Of a stretch of DNA of 64,000 bases, positions 25,719 through 49,101 are shown one piece after another. Location of the stretch: positions 23,477 through 87,476 of the forward strand of contig JABAYF010000010.1 of assembly GCA_018609125.1 (NCBI GenBank), given 5' to 3'. Below the pieces are notes generated by a model that saw only the letters and a list, made by a program, of their open reading frames with translations, had not been told where the DNA came from and did not search any database. Made by a program: the position numbers and the translations under genes. The number at the start of each line of letters is the position of its first letter. The stretch's first letter is position 1. This DNA is from Candidatus Nanopelagicales bacterium. Its GTDB lineage: Bacteria > Actinomycetota > Actinomycetes > S36-B12.

Positions 25719-26446
25719 CACGTACCGATGGCCGAACCGCCCATGAACTTCGACCCGTCACCTTTCAACGCGGCTGGCTGGAACAGGCGGAAGGTTCGGC
25801 GCTGGTGTCCTTTGGGCGCACGCGCGTTCTCTGCACAGCATCTTTCACTCCTGGGGTGCCTCGTTGGCTACGCGATTCAGGCACCGGCTGGATAACCGCG
25901 GAATATGCCATGTTGCCGCGGGCAACCAACACGCGAAATAGTCGTGAATCGGTGAAGGGTAAGCTGGGTGGACGAACCCAGGAGATTTCTCGGCTCATCG
26001 GTCGGAGTCTGCGCGCTATTATCGATACAAAAGCGCTGGGAGAGAACACCATTGTTCTGGACTGCGACGTGTTGCAAGCCGACGGCGGCACCCGTACGGC
26101 AGCCATCACCGGCGCCTATGTCGCCCTGGCCGACGCCCTCTCCTGGGCTCGGGAGCACGGGCACGTGCGCGGCAATCCGCTGAAGGATTCTGTAGCTGCG
26201 GTTAGCGTGGGCATCGTTGAGGGTGAAACTCGACTCGACTTGCACTACGACGACGACGTGAATGCCGACACCGATATGAACGTTGTGATGACCGGTTCTG
26301 GGCAGTATGTGGAAGTTCAAGGCACCGCCGAAGGCGACCCCTTCGATCGAGTACTCCTCGACGAGTTGCTGGCCTTGGCGGCCAATGGCTGCGAAGAACT
26401 CACATCACTACAGAGGGCAGTGTTGGCAGAGTCGAGCGCCCGATAG
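25715..26446 (+). CDS. rph: Ribonuclease PH
   Basis: [44 protein letters not shown]. Confidence 0.97.
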
Positions 26447-27036
26447 TGCGCCAGGTTGTTTTGGCCACGCGCAATCAGCACAAAATTGACGAAGTGACCC
26501 GGATCCTGGCCGGAGCGGGCACGGAAATTGACGTCCTAGCCCTGCCTGCCGACGCACCAGAGGTGGTGGAGTCTGGCGCGACATTTGCGGCCAACGCCAT
26601 GCTTAAGGCCCGATCTGCGGCCGCACACACCGGATTAGTGTCTATCGCCGATGATTCTGGCCTGTGCGTCGATGCTTTGAACGGGATGCCCGGCGTACTC
26701 TCTGCTCGTTGGGCCGGCACCCACGGCGACGACGCGGCTAATCTTGCGCTCTTGGTCGCCCAACTCGTCGATGTCGTTCCGGTGCGTCGCGGGGCGCAGT
26801 TTGTGTGCGCTGCAGCCGTAGTCGATCCACGCTCTGGCGATGAGCGTGTGGTCGAGGGAGTGCTGGAGGGCCGCATTGGTACCGAGGCGCGAGGGTTGAA
26901 CGGATTCGGTTACGACCCCATTTTTATTCCAGACGGCGCGGAACTGACCACCGCGCAACTGCAGCCGGGCGAGAAGGACGCGATGAGTCACCGAGGATCA
27001 GCCTTTCGCGCCGTTGCTGCCCTCCTGGTGCTCTAA
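26446..27036 (+). CDS. rdgB: dITP/XTP pyrophosphatase
   Basis: LATRNQHK, ADDSGL, PGVLSAR, GFGYDP, SHRG. Confidence 0.95.
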   Translation: MRQVVLATRNQHKIDEVTRILAGAGTEIDVLALPADAPEVVESGATFAANAMLKARSAAAHTGLVSIADDSGLCVDALNGMPGVLSARWAGTHGDDAANLALLVAQLVDVVPVRRGAQFVCAAAVVDPRSGDERVVEGVLEGRIGTEARGLNGFGYDPIFIPDGAELTTAQLQPGEKDAMSHRGSAFRAVAALLVL

Positions 27037-27100
27037 GGTCCGGCCATCAATTTCGCCGGATCGAATTGCGATCGGCTAGTAGTGCGTTATTGTATGGAGC

Positions 27101-27216
27101 AGCAAGGGGAGTATCCCGGTTCAACCGGTGGTCGTCAGCACGGCGTAGACAATGCGCCCGGTCACTGGGTCGGCGTCCGCACCGATGGGCACAGACACCG
27201 ATGGGCAGAGACCTTG
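27101..27216 (+). ncRNA. yybP-ykoY (Mn2+-sensing) riboswitch aptamer
   Basis: CAAGG-GGAGTA-TCCC at the 5' end; CCGGTGGT/GTCACTGG stem enclosing CGTCAGCA-CGGCG..CGCCCG; closes with GGGCAGAGA-CCTTG (P1 CAAGG 27103-27107 pairs with CCTTG 27212-27216); TATTGT -10 at 27088-27093. Confidence 0.85.
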
Positions 27217-27266
27217 TGTCGTACACACGCGAGAGATTCTCCTGTGTGCTCAGACACGAAGGAAAG
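27212..27266 (+). promoter_or_regulatory. RBS-sequestering hairpin (riboswitch expression platform)
   Basis: CCTTGTGTC pairs with GACACGAAGG, which includes the SD (GAAGGAAAG); inner stems GTACACA/TGTGTGC and GAGA/TCTC; competes with the P1 3' strand. Confidence 0.75.
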
Positions 27267-27270
27267 CCCC

Positions 27271-27786
27271 ATGTCAACCGCTGAATCTCCTTCCCCCACC
27301 GGTTCCATCGAACGCGATGTCGAACTGCGGGAGCGACACATCGCCCGTCAAAAGCCCAGCCTCACACCGGAGGGCTTCGATCTGATCAACGAAAGAATCG
27401 CTGACATTCATCAGCGGCGGTTGCCGGCACTGCGTCCCTTGCTCGTAGAGCACGAGCGTGACGAGCGCGATGTGGCCGCCTTTGAATCCCTGCTCGCTGA
27501 GGTTGTCGAGTGGGAGGCGCTCCTCGCCCAGGCTCAGGTGCTTGCACCGTCGGAATTCGTCAATCTCACCGAGGTCGGGCTTGGTTCCCGTGTTCACATC
27601 GCCTGCCCCGACGGTGAAACCATGTGGGTACGTCCGGTACATCCACGTGAAGCGTTCCTCGACGACGAGCGCATCTCGGTTGCTTCGCCGCTGGGTGCGG
27701 CACTTATGGGCGCTGCTGTGGGTGCGCAACTGCAGGTACCGGCTCCGACCGGTTCCTGGTGTGCGACGGTCCGTGCGATTGAGTAG
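27271..27786 (+). CDS. GreA/GreB-family paralogue (Gfh/Rv3788-like RNA polymerase secondary-channel factor)
   Basis: LTPEG..coiled coil; C-domain VGLGSRV..ISVASPLGAALMGAAVG..VPAPTG; lacks GDLSENAEY, tip reads EHERDERD. Confidence 0.85.
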   Translation: MSTAESPSPTGSIERDVELRERHIARQKPSLTPEGFDLINERIADIHQRRLPALRPLLVEHERDERDVAAFESLLAEVVEWEALLAQAQVLAPSEFVNLTEVGLGSRVHIACPDGETMWVRPVHPREAFLDDERISVASPLGAALMGAAVGAQLQVPAPTGSWCATVRAIE

Positions 27787-27847
27787 TGGGCGGTGTCGGA
27801 GCAGACTCCTAGGATGAGGTCATGCATCTGGGCGGGCGAGGGCGGCC

Positions 27848-29053
27848 GTGAAATTCCTGCACACCTCCGACTGGCATCTGGGGCGAGGGCTTCGCGGACA
27901 CGATTTGTCAGCCGCCCAGCAGGTGGCCCTAGATGCAGTCATCGACATTGCAATTGAGCATAATGTCGATGCGTTCGTTATCGCCGGCGACATATTTGAT
28001 CGTGCATTCCCCGCGGTTGACGATGTACGCAGATTCAACCGTGCTCTTCGCCGAATAAATGACGCCCAGATTCCTATCATCGTTACTTCCGGCAACCACG
28101 ATGAGGGCGCCCGATTAGCCGCCTACACCGAGCTTTTGAAAGATTCGGTGACGGTGATCGGAGAGTACGACCAGGTGGGCCACCGCGTGGATCTTGGTGA
28201 CAGCGCCGGACCGGTGGTTTTCTACCCACTGCCCTATCTCGACCCAGATGGTGCGCGGCGAAGTTTGGTCGCAGCCGATGCGCAGATGCTGGAACGCAGT
28301 CACGAGGCCGTCATGTCTGAAGCGATGAGACGAATCCGACTCGACCTCGCCCAGCGCCAGGTTGACCAGCCAACCACCCGCGCCGTTGTCGTGGCCCATG
28401 CTTTTGTCGTCAGCGGAACGCAAACCGCCGAAGGCCTGTTGGCCGAGCAATCCACGAGCGAAAGAGATATTTCTGTCGGGGGAGTGCCCTCGGTACCGGC
28501 CGGTGTGTTTGACGGTGTTCACTATGTCGCACTCGGTCATCTTCACGGGCCACGCACCGTGCAGGAACACGAACCCATGGTGCGGTACTCCGGATCACTG
28601 CTGCGCTATTCCATTTCTGAGCGAAACCACCGTAAGTCAGTGACGATCGTTGACATGGACGGCGACGGGCACTGCACGGTTGAGGAGATTGAGATCCCAC
28701 AGCCGGCGCGCATGACCCGTCTAGAAGGTGAACTCGCAGAGCTTGTCTCCGGTAAATTTCACCAGCACCACGACGACTTCGTCGACATCGTCTTGACCGA
28801 TAAATTCAAGGCCCCAAACGAGTGGGCGCAACTGAACGCGAAGTTCACCCGCATCCTTACCGTGACCCATCAGCGGTCAGCGGATGATTTATGGGAAAGC
28901 GACAAACTATCCGCCGCAATGGTGTTAACGAAATCTCCGCTGGACCTCATGCGCAGTTTCTACCTGCAAGAGAGAAACGAAGCGCTCACTCCATCCATGG
29001 AGAGCATTCTGGTCGACGTGGTGGAACAAGCCCAAGGCCACGGGAAGTCCTAG
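27848..29053 (+). CDS. sbcD: SbcD/Mre11-type nuclease subunit
   Basis: HTSDWHLG, AGDIFD, SGNHD, ALGHLH, YSGS. Confidence 0.95.
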   Translation: MKFLHTSDWHLGRGLRGHDLSAAQQVALDAVIDIAIEHNVDAFVIAGDIFDRAFPAVDDVRRFNRALRRINDAQIPIIVTSGNHDEGARLAAYTELLKDSVTVIGEYDQVGHRVDLGDSAGPVVFYPLPYLDPDGARRSLVAADAQMLERSHEAVMSEAMRRIRLDLAQRQVDQPTTRAVVVAHAFVVSGTQTAEGLLAEQSTSERDISVGGVPSVPAGVFDGVHYVALGHLHGPRTVQEHEPMVRYSGSLLRYSISERNHRKSVTIVDMDGDGHCTVEEIEIPQPARMTRLEGELAELVSGKFHQHHDDFVDIVLTDKFKAPNEWAQLNAKFTRILTVTHQRSADDLWESDKLSAAMVLTKSPLDLMRSFYLQERNEALTPSMESILVDVVEQAQGHGKS

Positions 29054-29054
29054 C

Positions 29055-31805
29055 ATGCGCATCCGGTGGCTTGAGTTTGTCGGTTTCGGGCCTTACCGCG
29101 ACCGTCAGGTGATTGATTTTGATCAACTTGGCGAGTCCGGGCTGTACCTCATCAACGGCCCCACGGGAGCTGGGAAATCCACGATCATTGATGCGATTTG
29201 CTATGCACTCTATGGCCGGTTGGCCGGCGACGATGCCGATGCCAGCCGAATGCGATCGGACTTTTGTGCCCCAAACGAAAGCACCCAGGTCGTCGCGATC
29301 TTCCAGGTGGCCGCGGGCACTTTTCGAGTAGAACGCTCACCGGAGTACACCCGACCCAAACTCCGGGGTGGGGGTGACACCAAATCCCATGCCACCTGCA
29401 AGCTTTTTCGCATCGGCGAAAATGGAGTCGAGAAAGAAGTCGCGCATCAAGTGGCGTCAGCCAATAGTGAGTTGCGCGAGATTCTGGGCCTTACCCGAGA
29501 CCAGTTTGTCCAAACCGTGGTGCTGCCCCAGGGGCAGTTCGCCACTTTCTTGACGGCAGACACAAAGGATCGAGTGGATCTGCTGAAGAAAATCTTCGCC
29601 ACTGATATTTACGAGCGCATCGCGCTGATCTTGAAGGAGCAGCAAAAGCAGGCAGGGGTAGAGCAAGCGGGCATCACTCATGACCTGCAGCGCAGTGTGA
29701 ACGCACTGGTGACAGAACTGAGCCAAGACGGCCATGTGGAGGCAGATCTGAATCAGTGGGTGACGGACAGCCTTGATGATCAACTGCTGACGGCACTGGC
29801 TGGTTATGGCCCTGCGCTGCAGTCGAGCAGTGCCCGGTTGCTCAAGGCTGCTCGTGTCGCGAGTGAGCAGGCCGAAGCTGCCGATGGCAATCGAATTTTA
29901 GCCCACCGAGAAGCCACCGCTCGCAATGCCAATATTGCGGCCGGGGAGAAGCTCCTCTCCAGCACGGTAGATATGGAAGCTAAGAAGACGGCCGTCTTGA
30001 CCCATCGGCAGGTGGCGTCATCGGTAGGTGTGGTGATTGACGACGACCCAGATGTGTCGGTATGGCGTTCCCGGGTGGGCGTAGTGGCGACTTCCATAGG
30101 GCAACTGCGGGCGTTACTCGACGACGAGCGTGCCCTGGAACACTGGCCAATGGAGCGGGCCCAGGCTGAGAAAGACATGGCCGCACTGGTCGACGATGTT
30201 GACGGGCTACGGGCGCTAAAGCAGCAGCTGCCCACACTCATTGAGCAACGTGAGTTCGACGTTGCTAGCAGACCTACTGCCGGTGAGCACATGTCGTTGC
30301 AGCAACGCCTGGACCAACTGAGTGCAGATGAACGGCGGCTTGTGGACTTCGCAGATTTGAGCGCGACTGAAATTGCATTGCGTGCGGAAGTTTCCCAAGC
30401 GACGCGAGCAGCAGAGGTCGCTGCCGCCGCGGCGGATCAGATCAGCCGCATGTTCCGCGAGAGTGCCGCCGGTTCCCTTGCCCAAGACCTGATCGATGGA
30501 CAACCATGTGGGGTTTGTGGGTCAAGCGTGCACCCGAACCCAGCGGTGAGTACCGGTGAAGCGATAAGCCTCGACGAAGTTGAACGCCTCAATCTTGCGT
30601 CCAGCACACGTCATCAAGAACTGGGCACGGCGCAAACGCGTCTACAAAACACAGTCGCAAAAATTGCGGAAATCCAGGTTTCAGCCCTGCCCCAATTGAA
30701 TGAACTGACAGCGCAGCGCCGAGACTTGGAAGATAGCCAGGAGGCGTTAGATCGGCGAGAATCAACCGCTGATCAGGCTGATCTTGCCCTGGTAGACCTG
30801 CGTCAAAATAGTGAGGCACTCAGCGCAAGAATTGCCGAGGCAAACACACAGATTGCAAAGGCTCAGACAGCGCTGAGTACACGCGCCGCGCACATGGAAG
30901 TGATACGAGTCAAGGTCGAGGGAGCACTTCATTCATCCGCATCGATCGAAGCTCGAATCCAGGTCACCGGTGAGTTTCATGTGGCGCTAGAAGCACTGGC
31001 TGTGTCGCTAGACGCCCTGAATCTGGCCACGACCGCTGCAGAGTTCTGTGGTGCAGCGCTCAGCGCATTTCCAGCACGCGAGCAGTTTGGTGATGTGGCT
31101 GCCGCCGAAGAGGACTGGGTCAGGCTCAGTGCAGCTAAGGATGAAGCAGCTGAGCAAGCGCGTGCCGCAACGGAACGGTTGCGCCGGTACACCGATGGCC
31201 TGGAGAACATCCAGCAATTGCTTGAACAACGAGTGCAACTGGTTGCCGGCAACTCCGAGTTGGCGCACCTGGCTGAAACGTTCAACAGTGGTCGTGGCAC
31301 TGATGTTGGCCTGCACATTTATGTACTGCGCGCACTGTTTGAAGAAGTAATGCTGCTGGCAAACGAGCGACTGAAAGACCTACTCAATGGTCGCTATCAA
31401 CTTGTTGTCGCCGATGAGTCCGCTGCCGACATGCGCAGTTTGCACGGCTTAGGTGTGGCCGTTAGCGATGCTCTCACGGATAAACCGCGACCTGCTGGGA
31501 GCCTCAGTGGTGGCGAAACATTTTGTGTTTCACTTGCCTTGGCCCTGGGGCTCTCCGATGCGGTACGCAGGAACGCCGGGGGCATTGAGATCCGCTCGCT
31601 GTTCGTTGATGAGGGGTTTGGCACGCTCGATAATGATCAACTCGATGAGGTTATGAATATGCTCAATCAACTCAGCGGCGCGGGCCGCCAGGTCGGGTTG
31701 ATCAGCCACGTGGAGAGCATGAAGGAAACGATCGGTGAACGTATTGAAGTACATGCGGTGCGCCTTGACCAACCCACTTCTTTAACCGTCAGCTGGATGA
31801 CCTAG
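29055..31805 (+). CDS. sbcC: SbcC/Rad50-type SMC ATPase
   Basis: GPTGAGKST, LPQGQF, zinc hook CGVCGS, LSGGETF, FVDEGFGTLD, ISHV. Confidence 0.95.
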   Translation: MRIRWLEFVGFGPYRDRQVIDFDQLGESGLYLINGPTGAGKSTIIDAICYALYGRLAGDDADASRMRSDFCAPNESTQVVAIFQVAAGTFRVERSPEYTRPKLRGGGDTKSHATCKLFRIGENGVEKEVAHQVASANSELREILGLTRDQFVQTVVLPQGQFATFLTADTKDRVDLLKKIFATDIYERIALILKEQQKQAGVEQAGITHDLQRSVNALVTELSQDGHVEADLNQWVTDSLDDQLLTALAGYGPALQSSSARLLKAARVASEQAEAADGNRILAHREATARNANIAAGEKLLSSTVDMEAKKTAVLTHRQVASSVGVVIDDDPDVSVWRSRVGVVATSIGQLRALLDDERALEHWPMERAQAEKDMAALVDDVDGLRALKQQLPTLIEQREFDVASRPTAGEHMSLQQRLDQLSADERRLVDFADLSATEIALRAEVSQATRAAEVAAAAADQISRMFRESAAGSLAQDLIDGQPCGVCGSSVHPNPAVSTGEAISLDEVERLNLASSTRHQELGTAQTRLQNTVAKIAEIQVSALPQLNELTAQRRDLEDSQEALDRRESTADQADLALVDLRQNSEALSARIAEANTQIAKAQTALSTRAAHMEVIRVKVEGALHSSASIEARIQVTGEFHVALEALAVSLDALNLATTAAEFCGAALSAFPAREQFGDVAAAEEDWVRLSAAKDEAAEQARAATERLRRYTDGLENIQQLLEQRVQLVAGNSELAHLAETFNSGRGTDVGLHIYVLRALFEEVMLLANERLKDLLNGRYQLVVADESAADMRSLHGLGVAVSDALTDKPRPAGSLSGGETFCVSLALALGLSDAVRRNAGGIEIRSLFVDEGFGTLDNDQLDEVMNMLNQLSGAGRQVGLISHVESMKETIGERIEVHAVRLDQPTSLTVSWMT

Positions 31806-47840: not shown

Positions 47841-48931
47841 TCCTCCACCCAGGTCTCCCGTTGCGCCGCAATGGTGGCGGGGTCAATCTCAAGCGGAGCG
47901 TCCACTCGCTTGGCGAAGTTGGTGAACACCGTGGGCAGCGCAACGCCTTCGCGGGCGGGGAAGACAAACATCGACAGCGGAAAGTCTTCCTGCACCGGCT
48001 CCGAAACAAGCCAATCCACGACGATTTTCGCTGCCTCTGCCACCGGTGTACCGCGCAAAACTCCGGCGAACTCGATCTGGCGGTAGCAACCATCGAGCAT
48101 CACCGATGTGCTCGGCCGCGTCGGTTTGGGGTCGGCCGCGTAGACGATCTCCGCCGGGGGGCTCGTGGCGTAGGAAACAACGATCGGCCTGTCTCCGGAG
48201 CCGCCACCTGCGCTGAACTGACCCTGGTAGGCCTCAGACCATCCGTTGACGACCTCGACACCATTGTCGCGCAGGTCCTGCCAGTAGGTGGGCCAGTCAT
48301 CTCCAAACCGGGCAACCGTCGCCATCAGGAAGGCCAGCCCGGGGGATGAGGTGGCTGGGTTTTGGACAACGAGCAGGTCGGCATAGGCGGGCTTGGTGAG
48401 GTCGGCCAATGTTGTGGGCGGCGCCACGTCATTGTCTGCAAACCATGCGTCGTCAAGATTGATACACACGTCACCATCGTCAACCGGGGTCACGACACCG
48501 AGACCGGCTTTGACCAGTTCTGGCCGTAGCGGTGCGTCGGCCACATAGGGATCGAACACGTCTGCATCAATCGCTCGAGACAGCAGGGTGGTGTCCACCC
48601 CGAAGAGAACATCGCCGTCCGGGTTGCCAGCGGCAAGCACCGCCCGATTAACGATCTCGCCGGCATCTCCGGCAGCGATGAGTTCAAGCACAATGTTGTT
48701 CTCTGCCTCGAAATCAGCGACGAGGGATTCGGTCAGGGCGAAGGAGTCGTGCGTGATGACACGCACCACAACGGGATCGCCGTTGGTGTCGACGGTGGTT
48801 GAAGTCTCACCGCCGGAAGTCCCACCACAGGCGGCCAAGACGAGGCCGGTGGTGAGTAGCCCCGTGGTGAGTGCAGTGAAGCGCGCCACCGCCGGAGCAG
48901 TGGAGCCCTGAGAAAAAAAGCGACGAAACAT
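47816..48931 (-). CDS. thiB: Thiamine ABC transporter substrate-binding lipoprotein
   Basis: Lipobox LAAC, THDSF, GDAG, NPATSSPG, VSYATSP, RQIEFAG. Confidence 0.92.
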   Translation of the reverse strand: MFRRFFSQGSTAPAVARFTALTTGLLTTGLVLAACGGTSGGETSTTVDTNGDPVVVRVITHDSFALTESLVADFEAENNIVLELIAAGDAGEIVNRAVLAAGNPDGDVLFGVDTTLLSRAIDADVFDPYVADAPLRPELVKAGLGVVTPVDDGDVCINLDDAWFADNDVAPPTTLADLTKPAYADLLVVQNPATSSPGLAFLMATVARFGDDWPTYWQDLRDNGVEVVNGWSEAYQGQFSAGGGSGDRPIVVSYATSPPAEIVYAADPKPTRPSTSVMLDGCYRQIEFAGVLRGTPVAEAAKIVVDWLVSEPVQEDFPLSMFVFPAREGVALPTVFTNFAKRVDAPLEIDPATIAAQRETWVEEWTQIVLR

Positions 48932-48937
48932 AAGAAG

Positions 48938-49030
48938 TCTCCCTCCGCTGGCATTACCCAGATCAGGTTGTAATGGGTCGGTGACGGCCGTCACCCTCTC
49001 AGCCCACTGATCCTGCGAGCTCCCCTGGTA
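48938..49030 (-). ncRNA. TPP riboswitch
   Basis: Minus strand GGGGAGC..GCTGAGAGG..GACCC..AACCTGATCTGGGTAATGCCAGCGGAGGGA directly upstream of thiB; the 3' strand overlaps the SD. Confidence 0.95.
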
Positions 49031-49101
49031 AAGCAACCCTAGCGCATTGGCTGGGGTGTGCTGGTTGTGCCGGAAAGTAGCGGTGATGCCACAGTGGGGG
49101 C

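Follow-up and report, generated by a model that had tools for sequence, protein, structure and literature searches.

Why would a manganese riboswitch stand in front of a gene for an RNA polymerase (RNAP) factor? The question is raised by the leader of a Gre-like gene in a 64,000-nucleotide (nt) stretch of contig JABAYF010000010.1 from a Candidatus Nanopelagicales bacterium; this whole stretch is referred to below as the window, and positions are counted from its first letter. The genes known to lie under Mn2+ riboswitch control encode exporters and metalation proteins. A preliminary description of the window had proposed that a yybP-ykoY (Mn2+)-type aptamer here acts as a translational ON switch for a non-canonical relative of the Gre factors, and each sequence element that it named (TATTGT, CAAGG-GGAGTA, CGTCAGCA, GAGA-CCTTG and a hairpin covering the Shine-Dalgarno (SD) sequence) was found where it had been placed. 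The results that follow make it likely, in our judgement, that a Gfh1-like factor of the Gre fold is gated by a functional yybP-ykoY (Mn2+)-class riboswitch, and that the subfamily to which this factor belongs lies in a Mn-riboswitch regulon.

An actinobacterial form of the aptamer precedes the Gre-like gene

A covariance model, R1, was built from 45 actinobacterial riboswitch copies that precede a TerC or P-type ATPase gene, with no Gre-linked sequence among them. The training set began as 54 TerC- or ATPase-linked copies, of which 46 were at most 135 nt long; one of these (L059) was dropped for a wrong 3′ boundary. R1 matched window positions 27101-27218 over its entire length (model positions 1-99 of 99; 53.7 bits, E 3.3e-11), and this was its sole match both in the 64-kb window and in the whole genome, a 2.15-Mb draft that is 97% complete. 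When a MAFFT alignment of the 45 copies was folded with RNAalifold, helices P1, P1.2, P3.1 (9 base pairs, bp), P3.2 and P4 were returned, with compensatory changes in 19 of 27 pairs. Paired cells made up 90.2% in this alignment versus 74.4% after shuffling, and the observed value was reached in 0 of 500 shuffles; a control in which the pairing partners were slid gave 40-56%. By these comparisons 27101-27218 is more than a chance match to the riboswitch family. The helices of the window's own copy (Table 1) were assigned by hand from sequence and agree with the RNAalifold consensus of the 45 other copies.

The element shares several features of its architecture with RF00080, the Rfam family of the class. 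In both, L1 (GGGGAGUA in the window) lies opposite GAGA beside P1, P4 is a hairpin, and the L3 arm has a helix of 10 bp and a hairpin of 5 bp with an A-rich bulge of 7 nt between them; the family context of TerC and P-type ATPases and an ON logic that operates through the P1 3′ strand are also common to the two. L1 is invariant in 45 of 45 training copies; CGUCA..AC, which is present in the window, and two L3 adenines are likewise invariant; the window's L1 and its CGUCA..AC loop are comparable to the RF00080 consensus. Within P1.2, UCCC/GGGA covaries with CCCC/GGGG. The differences lie in the junction and in the bulge. Most copies lack P2, with a three-way junction in place of the four-way one; a linker of only 3-8 nt separates P1.2 from P3.1, in the window as in the majority of copies. 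The bulge reads UCAnnAC here and ACAUACU in the canonical form. P2 appears to be optional, since a few copies (L029, L057, L059, L069 and L076) hold a P2-like hairpin insert at this place. Two gammaproteobacterial copies, from Salinicola (L029) and Alloalcanivorax (L057), have an actinobacterial-type L3 (CGUCAGCACGG) together with a hairpin at the P2 position; by this combination they bridge the P2-less and P2-containing forms.

Across the window's genus, P1.2 contains an extra bulged C and reads GGGCA instead of GGGA. The window also carries a 16-nt tandem duplication, the second copy of which provides the 3′ strands of P1.2 and L1. This duplication is missing from the same-genus copies L002, L004, L010 and L013; an independent DNA run and two RNA-library contigs contain it ungapped. 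With it, the R1 score lies only about 1-4 bits below those of the same-genus copies.

The gene context of the family points to Mn2+

A pattern specific to the actinobacterial form was applied to species-representative genomes, in which at least 120 loci (123 copies) were listed. Among the matches listed, the first downstream gene on the same strand encoded TerC for 88 of 123 copies, a P-type ATPase for 8 and a PGPGW protein for 1; for 18 copies none of TerC, ATPase, Gre-like or PGPGW genes lay within 650 nt, and for 4 the locus was too short. The taxa of 80 listed records were nearly all Actinomycetota, with two gammaproteobacteria and two Chloroflexota. A Pfam search of 79 open reading frames (ORFs) downstream of the first 80 loci among the matches listed returned TerC (48), ATPase (4), GreA_GreB (4), Usp (3) and Zn-ribbon (2) domains, and several others proved to be ORFs called in the wrong frame over terC.

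Because TerC follows 88 of the 123 copies among the matches listed, Mn2+ is the likely ligand, and the invariant bases of L1 and L3 point in the same direction. TerC and COG3809 are included among typical Mn2+-riboswitch genes in a passage of Weinberg 2017 (PMC5737381), and the metal selectivity of the canonical aptamer rests, according to a passage of PMC11672702, on one L3 adenine.

Several loci show unusual arrangements of the family. Two contigs from Acidimicrobiia each hold two copies, on the (-) strand and about 1.4 kb apart in L061 and on opposite strands in L068, with universal stress proteins among the downstream ORFs. Elsewhere, baeRF_family3 and Zn-ribbon (COG3809-like) genes stand behind riboswitch copies. 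Genome G029 has a P2-containing copy before a membrane protein gene (L025 1501-1608 (-), RF00080 32.4 bits) and a P2-less copy before a Gre-like gene (L015 1060-1156 (+), R1 70.6 bits).

The downstream gene encodes a Gfh1-like factor of the Gre fold

The product of ORF 27271-27786 contains the PF01272 GreA_GreB C-terminal domain at residues 100-171 (48.5 bits against a cut-off of 26.9); no second Pfam domain, GreA_GreB_N included, was found in it at E<=0.1. It scored below the cut-off of every NCBIfam GreA, GreB and Rnk model. Its best NCBIfam score was to the Rnk model NF004396 (46.5 bits, cut-off 109); further scores were to TIGR01462 (45.1, cut-off 139), TIGR01461 (32.4, cut-off 171) and NF004548 (22.4, cut-off 126), the last of which we take to be the Rv3788-type model. 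In phmmer searches of the PDB, the protein matched 2PN0, a GreA/GreB-family protein of Nitrosomonas, at E 3.7e-7 and Gfh1 at E about 1e-6 with the coiled coil covered, against E 0.16 for E. coli GreB and 0.85 for E. coli GreA.

The AlphaFold2 model (predicted local distance difference test 91, predicted template modelling (TM) score 0.79) has a coiled coil of helices 33-58 and 65-87 joined by a tip at 59-64. Foldseek placed RNAP-bound Gfh1 at the top (3aoi_X; TM-score 0.72/0.79, root-mean-square deviation 2.6 Å, 29% identity), then GreA and GreB, and the TM-score to Rnk (3bmb) was 0.39. The tip sequence, EHERDERD at residues 60-67, lacks the canonical motif. In an alignment of 45 family members R63, D64, E65 and R66 are invariant and a C-terminal block, WVRPVHP.EAFLDDERIS..SPLG, is conserved; D64 and E65 line up with the first pair of acidic residues in the Gfh1 tip. 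The genome also encodes, on a different contig, a Gre protein with the canonical GreA tip GDLKENGGYHAAKEEQ. Judged by its model, the protein under study has the Gre fold at full length, represents a subfamily of its own and is a paralogue of the genome's canonical GreA, and from the predicted fold we infer that it binds RNAP. The earlier designation as a non-canonical Gre/Gfh-like factor is upheld by the separate canonical GreA, the sub-cut-off NCBIfam scores and the best structural match to RNAP-bound Gfh1.

Among known factors, Gfh1 of Thermus and Deinococcus (PDB 3AOI, 2F23) is the best structural match and one of the best PDB sequence matches; the acidic pair aligns, and the window's genome, too, also has a canonical GreA. 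The tip of Gfh1 itself, however, is an acidic run, whereas the window protein has E.ERDER with two invariant arginines, comes from another phylum and is predicted to have its expression coupled to a Mn riboswitch. E. coli Rnk shares the C-terminal domain and gives the best NCBIfam score, but its coiled coil is short and that of the window protein is full-length. The mycobacterial RNAP inhibitor Rv3788 is likewise an actinobacterial Gre paralogue of similar size, although of a separate subfamily; two acidic residues at its tip are critical for inhibition, as stated in a passage of PMC4598747.

The Gre-like subfamily is linked to the riboswitch in several families of the class

The preliminary description had proposed collecting homologues and looking for the riboswitch upstream of them. 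Of the 30 Gre-like loci that could be resolved, 26 have the riboswitch upstream, or 25 of 29 if the window is left out; it stands there either directly or in the order riboswitch-terC-Gre-like. The sampled genomes are related to one another, so these counts do not represent independent events. A strict motif, GGGAGTA ... GAGACC, was present upstream of the Gre-like homologue in 10 of 22 relatives' loci, and R1 raised the count to 17 of 22 Gre-like loci, the window included, with the riboswitch upstream on the same strand. It lies 52-71 nt before the Gre-like gene in five of these loci (the window, L002, L004, L010 and L013) and 147-416 nt before it in six, with a PGPGW ORF between in L011; six of the 22 loci have the order riboswitch-terC-(PGPGW)-Gre-like. 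L012, with just 75 nt of upstream sequence, is not resolvable.

A class-wide sample of 301 genomes contained the Gre-like subfamily in 15. At ten loci from further families of the class, terC stands upstream on the same strand in all ten and the riboswitch was detected at nine, five within the initial flank and four (59.6-66.4 bits) in longer flanks; at the tenth locus the contig breaks off within terC. The ORFs that intervene between riboswitch and Gre-like gene encode TerC and PGPGW. Since terC sits between the two in most lineages, we read the direct fusion seen in the window's genus as derived: ancestrally, the Gre-like gene would have stood last in an operon of the order riboswitch-terC-(PGPGW)-gre-like, and loss of terC in the window's genus would have left the switch gating the factor directly. 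The circuit suggested earlier, in which excess Mn2+ induces a factor that tunes RNAP, is strengthened by the recurrence of this subfamily behind the riboswitch.

PGPGW genes, which encode a small membrane protein (L011 1106-1453, L014 1131-1469), occupy several positions at these loci. In L014 such a gene separates terC from the Gre-like gene, in L011 and L066 it comes directly after the riboswitch, and in L016, L018 and L153 it lies downstream of the Gre-like gene. A SAM-IV riboswitch (L009 166-272 (-), 99.8 bits) was found near a Gre-like locus that has no Mn riboswitch.

P1 and a predicted anti-SD helix share a strand

The 5′ arm of the expression platform, CCTTGTGTC (27212-27220), shares positions 27212-27216 with the P1 3′ strand. 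This arm, CCUUGUGUC, pairs with GACACGAAGG (27253-27262) over 9 bp, with G27258 bulged and an inner hairpin enclosed, and GACACGAAGG overlaps the SD sequence GAAGGA (27258-27263), 8 nt upstream of the start codon (ATG) at 27271. The anti-SD helix is formed in the minimum free energy (MFE) fold of the leader. Across the family, ten bases counted from the start of the P1 3′ strand were compared with the next 110 nt, and 73 of 96 copies showed an ungapped complementary match of 7 bp or more; the mean was 7.6 bp versus 5.5 bp for shuffled arms. Among copies whose complement reaches 6 bp or more, 54 have an AGG-type SD core, and the typical complement is ACCGGAGG, followed by a start codon. Neither the sequence nor a terminator scan revealed a U-tract terminator after the hairpin on the + strand. 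The translational ON design proposed for the leader is thus borne out comparatively by the complement counts and the missing + strand terminator, and pairing between the P1 3′ strand and the SD, as an alternative to P1, characterises the family.

From this arrangement we infer a translational ON switch that works through a metal-stabilised P1. At low Mn2+, CCUUG of the P1 3′ strand and the next four bases would pair with GACACGAAGG, so that the SD is buried and the gene is OFF. Mn2+ would dock L1 onto L3 and thereby stabilise P1; the stabilised P1 would take CCUUG out of the anti-SD helix, freeing AAGG and turning downstream translation ON. The factor produced would act in the RNAP secondary channel and be nearest to the Gfh1-type inhibitors, with D64 and E65 flanked by the invariant arginines at its tip, and its likely role would be to adjust catalysis, pausing or proofreading by RNAP under conditions in which Mn2+ and Mg2+ compete for the active site.

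Evidence against the proposed circuit and alternative explanations

Several results pull against the conclusion that the riboswitch gates the Gfh1-like factor. The Rfam 15 model RF00080 gave no match in the window at the gathering threshold, none on 27000-27320 even at E<=10, and none across the whole 2.15-Mb genome, nor did it match the element at 20 loci from relatives; the preliminary description had counted the lack of a significant match to this model against itself and, taken alone, the outcome is of that kind. As a single sequence, the leader does not fold with unusual stability (z -1.18), and its MFE fold does not contain P1. The anti-SD helix of the window requires a 1-nt bulge, and the ungapped count chose another 7-bp match there. 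Either the bulged C of the genus or the species' 16-nt duplication, which lies beside the L1 3′ strand, could alter binding. The TATTGT taken earlier for a -10 box is present at 27088-27093 (+), but a sigma-70 consensus scan found no promoter, and the box thus lacks that independent backing. Because it follows only 4 of the 123 copies among the matches listed, the Gre-like gene is a minor target of the riboswitch class. At four loci (L008, L009, L021 and L022) no riboswitch and no terC was found within 1.5 kb; L021 and L022 are second copies in genomes whose first copy is riboswitch-linked. The absence of TerC and other transporter families from the genome (see below) rests on a draft that is 97% complete, and RNA-library contigs such as those described below can contain DNA.

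The Rfam result has to be read against its control. RF00080 of Rfam 15 also gave no match in the C. glutamicum genome, although Rfam as of 2013 scored three yybP-ykoY leaders of this organism at 44-50 bits, the terC leader among them at 49 bits, according to a table in PMC3890552; a C. pseudotuberculosis yybP-ykoY element has been scored at 40.9 bits (PMC3917459). Because the control was unmatched, we interpret the negative as a sensitivity gap for Actinomycetota, for which the curated model is a weak test of membership. The RF00080 consensus is a 177-position model ('Manganese') with a P2 hairpin and without the closing P1 strand, and the Rfam 15 version misses the actinobacterial form. Since it misses every P2-less actinobacterial copy tested, current annotations probably under-call the riboswitch in Actinomycetota. 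Among 101 genomes of the order, one sub-threshold RF00080 match was found, L025, which scores 32.4 bits with RF00080 and 33.5 bits with R1; as it scores with both, the two models cover overlapping sequence space. The class assignment made earlier is not supported by the Rfam 15 model and is borne out by R1 (trained on TerC- and ATPase-linked copies), by covariation and by the gene context of the family. By homology, as judged from sequence, the RNA belongs to the known Mn2+ riboswitch class, and the class itself is not new. Besides the junction and the bulge, the window departs from this class, which includes the leader of C. glutamicum terC (cg2157), in the controlled gene, which encodes an RNAP factor and not a transporter.

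In most lineages the Gre-like gene is a distal operon gene, a position compatible with passive co-regulation. It may have been carried along at the end of a terC operon until a terC deletion left the riboswitch adjoining it, with no Mn-specific role for the protein; terC lies between riboswitch and Gre-like gene in 15 loci and is absent from the window's genome, and the genes past the Gre-like gene vary (sbcD, Sbt_1, DUF4192, baeRF3). We nevertheless regard this as unlikely, given linkage in 26 of 30 resolvable loci from several families of the class, direct fusions in the window's genus and in unrelated metagenome-assembled genomes (L026, L071 and L081), each with its own SD-pairing arm, and an aptamer kept intact without a remaining transporter to control.

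The P2-less form with its shorter L3 might instead sense another cation, such as Ca2+ or Fe2+, or have relaxed selectivity, in which case the circuit would not be Mn-specific. Consistent with this are the failure of RF00080 to recognise the element, the departure of the L3 bulge from ACAUACU, the response of the S. pneumoniae member to Ca2+ as well (in a passage of PMC11672702) and the presence in G029 of P2-containing and P2-less copies before different genes. The probability of such a change in ligand nonetheless seems low, and lower than that of passive carriage: the gene neighbours (TerC, type-II P-type ATPase, COG3809-like Zn-ribbon) are those of the Mn2+ class, two of them, TerC and COG3809, being named as typical in the cited passage of PMC5737381; L1 and two L3 adenines are invariant; and the C. 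glutamicum terC leader was called as yybP-ykoY by the older Rfam. Least probable, with very little weight in our estimate, is that the protein is a standard factor of transcript cleavage, in effect a second GreA, and that the circuit does no more than raise Gre dosage. It does have the Gre fold, a full-length coiled coil and acidic tip residues, and source databases label its homologues 'GreA/GreB family elongation factor'; set against this are the canonical GreA with the GDLKENGGYHAAKEEQ tip encoded elsewhere in the genome, the missing GreA_GreB_N domain (E<=0.1) and the TIGR01462 score (45 bits versus 139), the phmmer preference for Gfh1 (E about 1e-6) over E. coli GreA (0.85), and a tip that reads RDER in place of the canonical motif.

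A possible physiological condition for Gfh1-type factors

Gfh1, Rv3788 and Rnk-type factors bind RNAP tightly. In the passages of PMC4598747 that deal with them, Gfh1 and Rv3788 are inhibitors of RNAP with physiological roles unknown, and this review assigns no known physiological role to Gfh1, Rv3788 or Rnk-type factors. Pausing by Deinococcus Gfh has been tied to Mn2+ (a passage of the review PMC6722170, citing Esyunina 2016). Our literature search found no publication that joins a yybP-ykoY/Mn2+ riboswitch with a GreA-, Gfh1- or Rv3788-type factor, in line with the earlier remark that no description of the pairing was known, although an earlier mention in a gene table is possible.

By the comparisons presented here, a known sensor is wired to a new class of output, and this wiring is conserved enough to matter. 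A conserved output onto an RNAP secondary-channel factor would tie metal status directly to the transcription machinery. One subfamily that is almost always in a Mn-riboswitch regulon offers a concrete condition, manganese excess, and a natural two-part system, and the recurrence of the pairing in many related genomes suggests conditions under which Gfh1-like factors act. More tentatively, and with somewhat less than even confidence, we picture a streamlined marine actinobacterium without terC in which the sole Mn riboswitch feeds RNAP: excess Mn2+ would induce the RDER-tip factor, which would protect or retune catalysis, as a dedicated 'manganese-stress Gre factor' found across Actinomycetes. 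If this is true, manganese excess would be the long-missing physiological condition for Gfh1/Rv3788-type factors.

Host genome, locus organisation and transcripts

In the 97%-complete draft genome no TerC, MntP, Nramp, CDF (Cation_efflux) or GDT1 gene was detectable. Two P-type ATPases are present, neither beside a riboswitch, and to judge from this gene content the set of Mn-handling genes is unusually bare. Features of the locus are collected in Table 1.

Table 1. Positions of the riboswitch, its helices and the surrounding genes in the window
Feature	Position	Strand	Detail or basis
rdgB/Ham1	26446-27036		Upstream neighbour of the Gre-like gene; ORF list and Pfam
Leader			234 nt, between rdgB and the Gre-like gene
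Candidate -10 box, TATTGT	27088-27093	+	About 8 nt 5′ of the aptamer; sequence
yybP-ykoY (Mn2+)-type aptamer, actinobacterial form without P2	27101-27218	+	R1 match
P1	27103-27107 (CAAGG) / 27212-27216 (CCTTG)	+	
L1	27108-27113 (GGAGUA) // 27208-27211 (GAGA)	+	
P1.2	27114-27117 (UCCC) / 27203-27207 (GGG(C)A)	+	
P3.1	27125-27134 / 27159-27168	+	10 bp
Sequence element, CGTCAGCA	27133-27140	+	
7-nt bulge, UCAGCAC	27135-27141	+	
P3.2 hairpin	27142-27158	+	
P4 hairpin	27169-27202	+	
16-nt tandem duplication, CACCGATGGGCACAGA then CACCGATGGGCAGAGA	27180-27211	+	Lengthens P4; sequence
Expression platform	27212-27263	+	Sequence, MFE fold, family-wide design
Gre-family paralogue, Gfh1-like (ORF)	27271-27786	+	171 amino acids (aa); Pfam, NCBIfam, homologues, alignment, AlphaFold2, Foldseek, PDB phmmer
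sbcD	27848-29053	+	ORF; Pfam Metallophos and SbcD_C; 62 nt past the Gre-like stop
sbcC (candidate)	29055-31805	+	Name given from ORF appearance, not from a family search

The neighbourhood of Gre-like gene and sbcDC is unique to the window's genome, sbcD and sbcC following the Gre-like gene in no relative's locus, and in this genome only sbcDC may be co-transcribed with the Gre-like gene. The output that can be seen for the switch in the window's genome is the Gre-like gene, joined by sbcDC in the event of co-transcription. The idea that the riboswitch serves the Mn-dependent SbcCD nuclease was dropped as a general explanation because no relative has this gene order; it may hold in the window's genome. 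Support for an 'sbcC RNA motif' was not found: the name sbcC does not occur in the main text of Weinberg 2017, and in Weinberg 2010 it was encountered only in one reference.

At the position equivalent to that of the candidate -10 box, TTATTGT or TATTGT also occurs in L002 and L006. RNA-library contigs from two studies, covering 27120-27417 and 27125-27356, join the aptamer, the platform and the start of the ORF. No RNA-library contig was found over 26776-27057, where the DNA run continues, and none bridges 27805-27983. The starts of the two contigs, at 27120 and 27125, are a weak hint of a transcript that begins near the aptamer.

The frame of the Gre-like gene is open across the entire leader (27082-27786 (+), 234 aa from a GTG at 27082), and comparable long open frames occur in several relatives. 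We read the extension as non-coding, since it is rich in Arg, His and Cys and overlies the covarying aptamer. The sole Rfam gathering match in the 64-kb window is a TPP (thiamine pyrophosphate) riboswitch, RF00059, at 48923-49036 (-), with 56.7 bits against a gathering threshold of 54.3. DNA nearly identical to 26900-28100 is present in many marine, estuarine and sponge metagenome runs; among the matches listed, at least half of the sampled words of this segment were found in 15 of 24 metagenome rows.

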